Below, one piece after another: positions 30,893 to 50,510 of a DNA stretch of 64,000 nucleotides. Under the pieces are notes generated by a model. That model saw nothing but the letters and a program-made list of their open reading frames with translations, ran no database searches and was not told the DNA's origin. Each line of letters opens with the position of its first letter. The stretch's first letter is position 1. Made by a program: the position numbers and the translations under genes. The DNA comes from Clostridia bacterium (GTDB lineage Bacteria > Bacillota > Clostridia > TANB77 > CAG-508): assembly GCA_022797145.1 (NCBI GenBank), contig JAAWKA010000005.1:15874-79873 (forward strand), in the 5' to 3' direction.

Positions 30893-32116
30893 TTATAACT
30901 CCTCACTTTCTTCATCTTCTTCTCCACCAAACATATAATAAATTTTTTTAAGTTCTTCATCTTCAGTTTTTATAGCTTCATCCTTTATATCTTCTAAATT
31001 ATCAATATTTTCTAGTGTTTTAATTCTTTCATAATCTTGCCATAAATTTGTAAATTCTTTAGAATACCAACCTGGATATTTTTCTTTTTCTTGTTCTTGC
31101 TCAATTTTAAAATTATTTTTTTCCAAAGTTGTTATTCTTTCAATACATTCTTTTATAGTATCTGGCATATAATATTCAGTTTCATTTCTATACTTATCAA
31201 ATTTATCTTTTAATTCTTCTTTCAGTTGATCCACTTTATGTAATATAATATCTTCTGTTGTTCTTATTATTTGTTTTTCTATATCACTAAAATCTTCTGA
31301 ATTTATTGTAACCTCCGATTTATTAAAAGTTACTGCATTTAAATTTTCAAGTTCATTACTTGAATGCAAACTAATTTTTTTACCATATATATTAAATATT
31401 TCATCTAGTTCTGCTTCTGTTTTTATCTTGTTTCCATCATTAAATATTAAATTAACATTTTTCTTTTCTTTAAGAAAAGTATTTATCTCTGCCAATTTCA
31501 AAATAAATTTTGGAGCTTTCTTATGCTGTATTTCTTTTAAAATCAATCCTGCTTTAATTTCATTATCAAATAATCCCTTTTTATAGAGTTCTTCTAAATT
31601 ATGTATTTCTTCAGTATATGGATCAAAAATTATTGAATCACCATTATCTAGTGCATAAACAAGTTTGCTTGTATTGAAATTTATTTTTGTATTATAAGAA
31701 AGGCTACATTTTATATCAGTATCTAAACTTTGTAATTTTCTTATAGATATGTCTTTATATAACTCGTAGCTTGAATAATTATTATTCTTAAATATTTCAA
31801 ATGTCTTATCACTTATAAATTTTTGTATTCTATTATGAATCAAAGAACTGTACTCTAATATGTAATATCTCTTTAATAATTCTTGTTCAAATTTATAATA
31901 TTCTTTATTTTCTTTATCAAAATCACTTCTACTATGCACATATAAAGTATCTTCTTTACCATCCATATAAAAATAACTAAACATTGAATAACTATTATCT
32001 TGAAACAGCCTAAATTCTTCTTTATTCTCACTCACAAAATTAAATTTTCCTATTTTAATTATCATAAAATTACTCCTCCAAGTCTTGCGTGTCTTCCTTT
32101 TCTGGATAATACTCAT
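30893..32116 (-). CDS. Hypothetical, acidic tail (likely start MIIKIG)
   Basis: Ends EEDEESEEL. Confidence 0.75.
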   Translation of the reverse strand: MSIIQKRKTRKTWRSNFMIIKIGKFNFVSENKEEFRLFQDNSYSMFSYFYMDGKEDTLYVHSRSDFDKENKEYYKFEQELLKRYYILEYSSLIHNRIQKFISDKTFEIFKNNNYSSYELYKDISIRKLQSLDTDIKCSLSYNTKINFNTSKLVYALDNGDSIIFDPYTEEIHNLEELYKKGLFDNEIKAGLILKEIQHKKAPKFILKLAEINTFLKEKKNVNLIFNDGNKIKTEAELDEIFNIYGKKISLHSSNELENLNAVTFNKSEVTINSEDFSDIEKQIIRTTEDIILHKVDQLKEELKDKFDKYRNETEYYMPDTIKECIERITTLEKNNFKIEQEQEKEKYPGWYSKEFTNLWQDYERIKTLENIDNLEDIKDEAIKTEDEELKKIYYMFGGEEDEESEEL

Positions 32117-32609
32117 TTAAATAATTATCTATAATTCCATTCATAGTTTCATTAAAGAAGATATGATCTGTAATCTTGTCTGCTATATCAACTATGTTAT
32201 CTAATTCTAATGGAATATTCCTTCCATCTTCATTCATATCTTCTATTCTTGTAACAACTTCACTAGCAATACCTTTTAATAGAAATGTTTCATTAAGCTC
32301 TTTTATTTGTTTAAAAATTTCTTTTGAATTTTCTATTTCTACAGTCATTTGCTTTATAAAGTTATTACTATTTTTAATAAAACTTTCAAAATTTTCTTTT
32401 TCTTCTTGATTTGTATAAAATATCGTTTGAAAATATAATCCATTTTTATTATTTTCAGTTTCATAGAATAATGCTTTTTCTCCTAAATTTTCAAATGAAA
32501 TAAGATTTATATTGTGATTTTTTAAATAATCTTTTATTCTTTTAATTTCTTCGCTTATTTCTGTTTCTTTCATATTAGCTTTTAATATTAATATGTTCTC
32601 ATATTTCAT
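32070..32609 (-). CDS. Ribosomal protein bS6-like N-terminal domain fused to an acidic helical domain
   Basis: MKYENILILK...ENLGEKALFYE...GLYF...F...IKQMTV follows the S6 pattern YE..I.......WG.R.LAYEI....GYY....F......R. Confidence 0.65.
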   Translation of the reverse strand: MKYENILILKANMKETEISEEIKRIKDYLKNHNINLISFENLGEKALFYETENNKNGLYFQTIFYTNQEEKENFESFIKNSNNFIKQMTVEIENSKEIFKQIKELNETFLLKGIASEVVTRIEDMNEDGRNIPLELDNIVDIADKITDHIFFNETMNGIIDNYLNEYYPEKEDTQDLEE

Positions 32610-34167: not shown

Positions 34168-35009
34168 TTATTCCTTTCTTAAATTGCAACAATCATCTTT
34201 ATTTACATTTACATTTCTTTTCCAATACAAATAATGATTAGAAACATCTTCACATATTGTTACTTCTTCAAATCCAGTTATTTTCTTTAACATTTTAATC
34301 TTATCTTTTAACTGTAAATGACAATATCCACTTTGTTTTAAAGTATATTTAGAATAATCTAAGTCAAACCATCTCTTTATCCATGAATTTACTCTCAAAA
34401 ATTCAATTAAAATTTTGTCACATTTAATGTTGTTTAAAATATCAAAGTCTATATATTGTTCAATAAATGGTGAAAGTCTAACCTGTACATCAAATCCATG
34501 TTCTTGTAATTTTTCAATGGCTTCAATTCGTTTACTTGGAACAGTTGCTTTTTCATAAGTAAGTGATAAATCATCTTGTGTAGTTGTTATTGTAATTTGA
34601 ATATGTGCTAACTTTTTGTCTAATATTTTTATATATTCATCATCAGCTATTAAATTTGATTTAGTAACTATTAAATAACCTATTCCATACTTATTTAATA
34701 GCTTTATCGTGTTATATGTAACTTTATATTTCTTTTCAATTGGTTGGAAACAATCGGTCATTCCGACCTAATCGCAATATTGTTCCTTTAGGTAATTTTT
34801 TTATTTTTCTCTCTATCTTGCTTGTATCAGCTACACTCGGATCATTTGGATTCCATAAATTTCTAAAATCTAATAATGATTTTGCATAACAATATTTGCA
34901 ATCATGCTGACAGCCACAACCATATGTATCAAGTCGTGTAGGATATTTGCATTTACTTCCTTCATTTCCTTCTACTGTTTTATAAAAACTCTTAAATTCT
35001 TTGCTTCAA
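34168..35009 (-). CDS. Radical SAM protein (spore-photoproduct-lyase-like); needs +1 shifts near 35003 and at C-GGA 34765
   Basis: RLDTYGCGCQHDCKYCYA (CxxxCxxC), RLG-[C]-GMTDCFQP, IVTKS, VRLSPFI; AGGAGG RBS before TTG. Confidence 0.75.
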
Positions 35010-35026
35010 TTTTCCTCCTATTATAA

Positions 35027-35098
35027 TGGTTGCAAAGGTGGGTACTGCCCCCACATCGCCAGCAAAGCAGACTGGAATGTTCTTTACACTACATTGCG
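35027..35098 (-). ncRNA. Non-canonical tRNA-like RNA (72 nt, encoded CCA)
   Basis: Cloverleaf CGCAATG-TA-GTGT/AAAGA/ACAT-T-CCAGT/CTGCTTT/GCTGG-CGAT-GTGGG/GGCAGTA/CCCAC-CTTTGCA-A-CCA; GC-rich patch in AT-rich DNA. Confidence 0.7.
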
Positions 35099-35156
35099 AT
35101 AAATAAAAAAACTCACAAGTCACTTTTTCAAGCAACTTATAAGTTTTGATATTAAC

Positions 35157-35202
35157 ATCATAATATTTTATATAGGGGTTTTCAATTCCCAAATTTTTCC
35201 CT
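35157..35202 (-). promoter_or_regulatory. Sigma-A promoter with GGGAA box (P2)
   Basis: AGGGAAAAATTTGGGAA-TTGAAA-17 nt-TATGAT, then hairpin plus U-tract at 35103-35148. Confidence 0.8.
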
Positions 35203-50449: not shown

Positions 50450-50464
50450 TTTCTTTGCATTAAC

Positions 50465-50510
50465 ATCATATTATTTAATTATATATATTTCAATTCCCAA
50501 ATTTTTCCCT
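50465..50510 (-). promoter_or_regulatory. Sigma-A promoter with GGGAA box (P4)
   Basis: AGGGAAAAATTTGGGAA-TTGAAA-17 nt-TATGAT, then hairpin at 50419-50459. Confidence 0.78.

Follow-up and report, generated by a model that had tools for sequence, protein, structure and literature searches.

How is a gene translated when it has no usable canonical start codon, and what is the small tRNA-like element that stands at its head? Both questions are raised by a locus in a 64-kb stretch of DNA (the window, by which we mean the whole stretch that was analysed) from a 1.65-Mb Clostridia genome. The gene encodes a spore-photoproduct-lyase-like radical SAM protein and is here called RS. Upstream of it, on the minus strand from 35098 to 35027, lie 72 nucleotides that can be drawn as a cloverleaf with an encoded CCA. 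Segment by segment they read CGCAAUG UA GUGU AAAGA ACAU U CCAGU CUGCUUU GCUGG CGAU in the first part and, after CGAU, GUGGG GGCAGUA CCCAC CUUUGCA ACCA in the second. The preliminary description of this DNA had listed C1xA72 and U6xU67 mismatches, a 5-nt D-loop without GG, the T-loop GGCAGTA, a 4-nt variable region, the anticodon loop CTGCTTT and a terminal ACCA, and all of these are present. The C1xA72 mismatch is followed by G2:C71 and C3:G70, the residue at position 73 is A, the D-loop is AAAGA, and the anticodon loop CUGCUUU (35064..35070, minus strand) holds the anticodon GCU at 35068-35066. With 51% G+C, the element stands out from the surrounding window (23-30%).

The element had also been placed between a promoter with its hairpin and the radical SAM gene, and this position is confirmed from the sequence. 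A promoter-like site (TTGAAA, 17 nt, TATGAT; 35157..35185, minus strand) matches the consensus at 10 of 12 positions, a consensus match only, and is followed by a terminator-like hairpin with a U-run (35108..35147, minus strand) that ends 9 nt before the element and whose stem shows compensatory changes in the related loci L002 and L012. A second copy of the promoter-like stretch before the hairpin is found at 50459-50508 of the window (minus strand), with 83% identity over 50 nt.

Standard tools do not recognize this element. ARAGORN reported no genes in the 64-kb window at default settings and nothing but spurious calls at lowered thresholds. Rfam (15) had no match at the gathering score and no tRNA-family match at E<=10; the sole lead was a local match to alpha_tmRNA (RF01849) of 17.5 bits, with E = 0.0032 in a 601-nt search, where the gathering score is 50. 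Folded by minimum free energy (MFE), the 72 nt do not form a cloverleaf (z = -0.30), and thermodynamics alone lends no support. Given the lack of a detector call and of a cloverleaf fold, the window element taken by itself could have been a product of chance, and it is the comparison of relatives that settles the matter.

The same element was found in 82 distinct contigs, which represent 14 sequence variants. It is present upstream of the close RS relatives L002 and L012. Among 401 genomes of the order, three carry it, the window's own genome included, and one of the three is L025, with 78% identity. A search pattern with a free anticodon arm gave 12 loci in a genome contig collection, including cultured Enterocloster (two species), Eisenbergiella tayi, Diplocloster, Bittarella, Ruthenibacterium and Allofournierella, as well as 67 metagenome contigs. 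A T-arm pattern added a copy in Pseudoflavonifractor (L136), and covariance-model searches of 151 genomes each added one in G439 (L153) and no further copy. A first metagenome pattern with a fixed 3' strand of the anticodon stem found no match and was too strict, because the anticodon stem covaries; an exact 28-nt pattern likewise had no match in the genome contig collection. Pattern searches of viral contigs and blastn searches of plasmid and phage collections detected no element. In the window's genome, the family covariance model gives the element 101.4 bits and has no other match, so it is present there in a single copy.

The pairing of the stems is maintained across these relatives. Among four variants, all 12 stem substitutions were compensatory, with six pairs changed on both sides and none on one side only, and none of 500 shuffles scored as high. 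With 14 variants, 97.9% of the 280 stem cells pair, 10 of the 20 pairs have changed on both sides, and the covariation score is 0.49 against 0.15 for shuffles, with slid controls pairing in 36-49% of cells; this alignment had been fitted to the model, a bias in favour of the structure. The changes on both sides fall in the acceptor, anticodon and T stems. The D stem hardly varies, with a single change from G.U to G:C and none on both sides, and so covariation says nothing about it. In the GC-richer variants, the MFE structure is the cloverleaf. The assignment of 35027..35098 as a tRNA-like gene thus has three bases: the sequence, covariation in three of the four helices, and the covariance model. 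Covariation across homologues was a check put forward in the preliminary description, and the comparative pairing bears out its view that a genuine non-canonical tRNA-type gene heads the radical SAM gene.

Invariant in the 14 variants are the D arm, the UGCUUU of the anticodon loop, the GG-GGCRGUA-CC of the T arm, the pairs G2:C71, C3:G70 and G7:C66, and residues A72 and A73. Conservation stops exactly at the CCA, which is encoded in 13 of 14 variants; the L153 variant has none, as in many true tRNA genes. The pairing, the invariant features and the end of conservation at the CCA together are what one would expect of a free RNA of tRNA type rather than of a simple hairpin in a leader, so far as comparison of sequences can tell. 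They do not fit a canonical tRNA, since all 14 variants have the T-loop GGCRGUA, the D-loop AAAGA and U37. The family is absent from Rfam 15, and we found no description of it in the literature searched.

In the type B group of variants, the element and RS sit in a conjugation module, after a gene for a TraG P-loop and AAA_10 protein and before DUF5697 and DUF6100 genes. In the window the surroundings are genes without assigned function, an S6-like protein, and SpaA-type pilin and sortase genes, and only the tRNA-like gene and RS are common to the two settings. The S6-like protein (32070-32609, minus strand; 179 aa) belongs to the same operon, and its N-terminus matches ribosomal protein S6, with E = 7.5e-14 in Pfam and 39.1 bits for NCBIfam S6, where the cut-off is 42.9. 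The 82 contigs are best explained by an unannotated family of tRNA-type genes borne on conjugative elements of Clostridia. A single origin of the linked RS clade is neither shown nor excluded by our RS tree, which is a quick tree from which the motif filter dropped L025, L057, L059, L005 and L010. In two transcriptomic libraries from one study, both the type B element (L054 2820-3083 and 2882-3042) and the RS body (L054 3240-4006) are covered by contigs that are 95-99% alike; DNA carry-over is possible, RNA ends are not visible in them, and the gap at L054 3110-3231 carries no meaning since these are contigs only.

RS lies downstream of the element in all 82 contigs. The N-terminal part of the window's RS (34766..35005, minus strand) contains a CX3CX2C motif and has no in-frame ATG, GTG or TTG before codon 76, a first canonical start that is beyond the motif. 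Its first codon is AGC (35003..35005, minus strand), preceded by an in-frame TGA, and this codon is complementary to the anticodon GCU. The frame without a start codon, opening with a codon that matches the anticodon upstream, is the key point of the locus, and the preliminary description had overlooked it. AAGC opens the RS frame within 140 nt of the element in 82/82 contigs. Immediately before AGC, that frame has a stop in 79/82 (TAA in 63 and TGA in 16); the remaining 3 have a sense codon there. Across the element-linked copies, the first in-frame ATG, GTG or TTG is found at codon 19-81; in L054 the longest ORF in the RS frame that starts with one of these begins at codon 42, past the Fe-S motif. 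RS relatives without the element have ATG, GTG or TTG at the equivalent place (L019 is ambiguous). In the 64-kb window, RS is the only ORF with a Shine-Dalgarno (SD) sequence followed by AGC 5-10 nt on.

The frame that begins at AGC is under selection. Changes in its early part are mostly synonymous: over the first 17 codons after the start region, L054 and L071 differ by eight synonymous and no non-synonymous changes, and over the whole gene dN/dS is 0.04-0.11, with strong purifying selection from codon 2. Between L054 and L136, both without a canonical start, RS has 148 synonymous and 59 non-synonymous changes. The synonymous bias in the first codons and the low dN/dS argue that RS protein is made, in the AGC frame, from its very first codons. 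The frame is intact for at least 270 codons from AGC in 71 of the 78 contigs with enough sequence.

The window belongs to the seven with a broken frame. At 34765-34763 an extra C gives GGT CGG AAT where relatives have GGT GGA ATG, so that there is a zero-frame CGG (34763..34765, minus strand; GGT C GGA ATG), the RS frame moves by +1, and the C-terminal part (34168..34764, minus strand) continues in the +1 frame. This second break is unique to the window among the element-linked copies, and because of it the module may be decaying here. One could go further and regard the window's element as a decaying relic or a chance cloverleaf, functionless in this genome, as the broken RS and the non-cloverleaf MFE fold might suggest. 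We consider this very improbable: every family-invariant position is intact in the window element, its score is 101.4 bits, and the family is clearly under selection.

That the element always adjoins RS could mean that it is a substrate or cofactor of the radical SAM enzyme, and radical SAM enzymes that act on tRNA exist; a decoy for a host or rival anticodon nuclease would be a related idea. Constant adjacency is the sole evidence for either. RS homologues occur in 16 loci without the element (in Clostridia, Bacteroides, Fibrobacter and Methanobrevibacter), so this RS family is widespread on its own and the substrate reading, which the preliminary description had offered, is not supported. 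The missing start codon would also go unexplained. We give such functions very little credence. Nothing was found in favour of two other roles suggested at the outset, a nuclease decoy and a T-box ligand, and both leave the matching AGC unaccounted for; the suggestion of a ribosome ligand came close to what the evidence now suggests.

The match between anticodon and first codon is conserved. The first AGC is invariant in 10/10 subtypes examined, while the next Ser codon switches between AGT and AGC; this host uses AGT 4.7-fold over AGC. The A in front of the first AGC is invariant as well, and with U37 the anticodon can be extended to GCUU, complementary to AAGC. AGC also stands where a start codon should. 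In the window the SD sequence AGGAGG (35014..35019, minus strand) is 8 nt before AGC and 4 nt before an out-of-frame TTG, and in every context, read by eye, AGC is 8-11 nt after the SD core. In the host genome, the SD spacing of ATG starts peaks at 7 nt and that of TTG and GTG starts at 7-8 nt.

The commonest start context is that of type B, ...GAGGTGAT ATA A AGC, seen in cultured Enterocloster, Eisenbergiella, Diplocloster and Bittarella and also in Pseudoflavonifractor L136. L025 has TAG CCG A AGC. In these two contexts there is no canonical start near the SD sequence in any frame. The type B group also has a mini-ORF of 6-10 codons with its own strong SD sequence between the element and RS (L054 3079-3113, with equivalents in L063, L071 and L136); its peptides, MYPTIK, MYLIAM, MYSITE and MYWDDKRSKS, show that the ORF is kept and the peptide sequence is not. 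The ATG of this leader mini-ORF and the AGC of RS are each 8 nt after a GAGG.

The acceptor end of the element is that of an initiator. Position 1:72 is CxA in 12 variants, AxA in one and U:A, a weak pair, in one, and is thus unpaired in 13/14, and G2:C71, C3:G70, A73 and G30:C40 are each present in 14/14. The host's own initiator tRNA, CGCGGGG...CCCCGCAACCA, has the same acceptor-end determinants. When the family model was run on the Bittarella genome, the element there scored 99.9 bits and the sole other match was the true initiator tRNA (36.8 bits), which has exactly the acceptor stem of the type B element. The available part of PMC5389676 gives the 1:72 mismatch with 2:71 and 3:70 as the major determinant for Fmt and, of the three GC pairs of initiators, describes the middle one, G30:C40, as essential, with natural initiators of the au/GC/gu kind. 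In the element family only G30:C40 is constant among these three, 31:39 being G:C in 8/14 variants and 29:41 in 1/14. The anticodon is GCU, not CAU, in 14/14 variants, and its cognate codon is found at the start position behind an SD sequence, heading an ORF. As far as the accessible text of PMC11744186 goes, initiator tRNAs with a changed anticodon start at the complementary codon, a GCU mutant with an efficiency below 35%.

We consider it probable that this tRNA decodes (A)AGC and thereby opens the RS frame. The particular reading that we prefer is that the element provides RS with an initiator tRNA of its own, tRNA(GCU), for a start at AGC; to this we would assign a probability of roughly 0.45. 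Under it, the element would be co-transcribed with RS, a tRNA of 72-73 nt ending in CCA would be cut out of the transcript, and this tRNA would be charged with some amino acid. Its initiator-type acceptor end would then lead to formylation and to placement by IF2 in the ribosomal P site, where GCU would pair with AGC, perhaps extended by pairing of U37 with the preceding A. We infer processing, charging, formylation and P-site use from the features above; the outcome would be a private initiator tRNA for a gene that gave up ATG, GTG and TTG. A wider proposal, somewhat more tentative, is that gut-Clostridia conjugative elements carry an orthogonal start system of a private GCU initiator and an AGC-start client, in which the protein would be made only with the tRNA and would have a non-Met N-terminus.

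Several features count against an initiator. Most variants have an 8-nt anticodon loop with U37, which resembles a +1 suppressor, and to our knowledge such a loop has not been seen in an initiator. The pair 11:24 is U:A, which is the elongator type. The T-loop GGCRGUA is unlike that of any initiator, and one variant has U1:A72. We know of no synthetase likely to accept a tRNA that combines anticodon GCU with a short variable arm; from identity rules, our guess at the charging enzyme is ArgRS, by way of C35 and U36.

Some of these features fit another mode of decoding, in which the element is a +1 frameshift (quadruplet) tRNA. A normal initiator would begin at an upstream TTG, ATG or ATA, and the anticodon GCUU would read AAGC in the A site and move the ribosome into the RS frame. 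In the window this would happen on the out-of-frame mini-ORF TTG AAG CAA AGA ATT TAA (34992..35009, minus strand), to which the RS frame is +1; by the unshifted route, normal tRNA-Lys would read AAG and translation would end within the mini-ORF. The anticodon loop has 8 nt (AUGCUUUA) in 9/14 variants and 7 nt in four, where it is closed only by U.G, and the invariance of U37 and of the A before AGC makes GCUU/AAGC a perfect 4-bp match in all variants. In 6/8 start contexts, an ATG or TTG is in register with AAGC, which would follow it as the next step or the next but one. Four distant lineages (L002, L059, L129 and L153) conserve ATGCTK, where the change from CTG to CTT is synonymous if read in the ATG frame. 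Read by quadruplet, L063 would begin with M-K-E-F-K-S-F-Y-K, as ordinary relatives such as L015 and L016 do. A U1:A72 pair, seen in one variant, would be favourable for EF-Tu, given the preference of that factor, and the RS family has other +1 sites that arise from an inserted C.

The start contexts speak against this. The commonest of them, type B, has ATA only, and L025 has CCG preceded by TAG; AUA starts at 0.1-1% in the portion of PMC11744186 available to us, and yet the comparison of two ATA lineages shows strong purifying selection on RS. Where an upstream ATG or TTG does exist, it is only 1-5 nt from the SD core: the ATG is 1-3 nt after it in L129, L002, L153 and L059, and the window's TTG is at 4 nt. 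Starts at such spacings are rare in the host genome (for ATG, four at 1 nt and none at 2 or 3 nt; for TTG, one at 4 nt). The conserved 1:72 mismatch and the Fmt determinants would have no purpose in an elongator. As to initiator or FRAMESHIFTER, we rank initiation at AGC above +1 or quadruplet decoding, its main rival, which we regard as rather unlikely.

It could also be that the element does not decode at all and acts in cis as a tRNA-shaped leader, either as a signal for cleavage by RNase P or RNase Z or as a switch that hides or frees the SD sequence and start, with RS starting by some other route. The element is indeed in the 5' leader, directly after the terminator-like hairpin, and in the AT-rich variants the RS start region is complementary over 6 bp to the 3' strand of the acceptor stem, a pairing that is also predicted when L025 is folded; in the window, the start region is predicted to pair instead with a similar UUUGCU in the anticodon arm. 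Of the 6 bp, type B retains only 3, and a leader leaves unexplained the invariant UGCUUU, the match to the first codon, the initiator-type end and the translation of a startless frame. We judge a purely cis-acting role improbable.

The start region has a further relationship to the element. Its sequence (A)AGC[A/G]AAG copies the 5' strand of the acceptor stem, and its complementarity to the 3' strand CUU[U/C]GC, which is the 6 bp lost in type B, includes one covarying position (34999-35005 against 35034-35040 in the window, minus strand; also in L002, L012, L025 and L059). The Rfam match to alpha_tmRNA had paired exactly the RS start region with the 3' acceptor strand. This may reflect an alternative hairpin that hides the SD sequence and AGC, or may be a trace of the module's origin. 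A two-piece tmRNA-like module was considered and dropped, as the SD sequence is conserved between the CCA end and AGC and a full cloverleaf is present. With the acceptor piece of the alpha-proteobacterial two-piece tmRNA (RF01849), the element shares a T-arm loop GGCRGUA followed by the acceptor 3' strand and ACCA, but it has a full cloverleaf, C:G rather than G3:U70 at 3:70, no tag frame and no pseudoknots. The host genome has its own tmRNA.

Compared with bacterial tRNAfMet, the element has the same unpaired C1xA72, G2:C71, C3:G70, A73-CCA and G30:C40, and its cognate codon is at start distance from the SD sequence. It differs in having GCU rather than CAU, a 7-8-nt loop with U37, U:A at 11:24, one constant GC pair, a 5-nt D-loop without GG and a T-loop GGCRGUA, and in being borne on a mobile element beside a single apparent client. 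Genes for tRNAs in an mRNA leader have a precedent in the E. coli tufB operon, where they are co-transcribed upstream of the protein gene and released by processing; the tufB tRNAs are ordinary, however, and the protein gene has its own AUG.

The closest functional parallels to a private initiator come from the laboratory. Engineered initiators with non-CAU anticodons start at complementary non-AUG codons in the available portions of PMC11744186 and 10.1101/2021.05.25.445580, and the amber initiator and i-tRNA-AAC are, as we propose for the element, initiator bodies without CAU that start at a matching non-AUG codon. Those are laboratory constructs, whereas the element occurs in nature, has been conserved across genera and is coupled to a natural startless gene. 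The +1 suppressors with 8-nt loops such as SufB2 and sufD, so far as the accessible parts of PMC8464047 and PMC9094753 describe them, resemble the element in the enlarged loop of most variants and the possible GCUU/AAGC match. They are mutant or engineered elongators with 1:72 paired, in contrast to the element, which has an initiator-type end and whose site is the first codon after the SD sequence. In the literature that we searched, the non-AUG initiators were all engineered and the quadruplet tRNAs all engineered or mutant, with no natural counterpart found, and the available part of PMC13092985 has nothing on a tRNA-like element.

If either decoding model is true, this would be the first natural case found of a mobile element that brings its own tRNA for one startless gene. 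It would provide natural exceptions to the rule that starts use AUG, GUG or UUG with tRNAfMet, would explain an RS gene without a usable canonical start, and would reveal a class of tRNA missed by ARAGORN and Rfam. It would also offer a ready-made pair of start codon and tRNA, with hosts from a genome of 25% G+C to cultured Enterocloster, Eisenbergiella and Bittarella. Such a lock might serve to keep expression of the enzyme low or conditional, to give the protein an N-terminus other than Met, or to make its synthesis independent of the host initiator.

A likeness to tRNA-Gly(UCC) had been noted in the preliminary description, and it holds in this genome: in global alignments against the 33 host tRNAs, the two best were the tRNA-Gly(UCC) copies. 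The anticodon and T stems concerned are replaced by compensatory changes in relatives, so the likeness is probably coincidental, and the end that is conserved is the initiator's. We dropped descent from tRNA-Gly(UCC) for the same reason. An att-site remnant was dropped as well, because the element is internal to the mobile element and under selection.

The RS family shows recurrent +1 breaks in which an extra C before a Gly codon creates a zero-frame CGG in genes that are otherwise intact. Besides the window (GGT C GGA), such sites are found in L009 (GGA C GGA), L003 (TAT C GGA TGT C GGT), L006 and L007 (TGT C GGT), L008 (TAT C GGA) and L011 (TGT C GGG). In the host genome CGG is the rarest Arg codon, at 0.11 per 1000 (GGA 37 per 1000), and the 33 host tRNAs identified include no tRNA-Arg(CCG). 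From the sequences, programmed +1 frameshifting at a hungry codon seems a better description than decay. A connection of the tRNA-like element with these sites was dropped, as the anticodon does not fit, and the link to Gly recoding raised earlier fails likewise, since GCU does not fit a CGG/GGN site. In the RS genes of L005 and L010 (Bacteroides nordii and B. timonensis), an in-frame TGA stands at a conserved Trp (F R K L * D against F R N L W N), spanned by a single tblastn segment.

Two more distant elements came to light. In L154 (G691), positions 1500-1576 match model R2 with 39.7 bits and are called tRNA-Ser(GCU) by ARAGORN; this element, as we read it, has a short variable region and no encoded CCA, and is clustered with tRNA-Trp and tRNA-Glu rather than beside an RS gene. 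In L145, a Chloroflexia MAG, an element at about 1045-1116 that ARAGORN missed lies in a tRNA array between tRNA-Lys and tRNA-Ile. It has an initiator-like end (GCGGGG...CGCCGCAACCA), a CUCAUAA loop (CAU) and the same odd T-loop, GGCAGUA.
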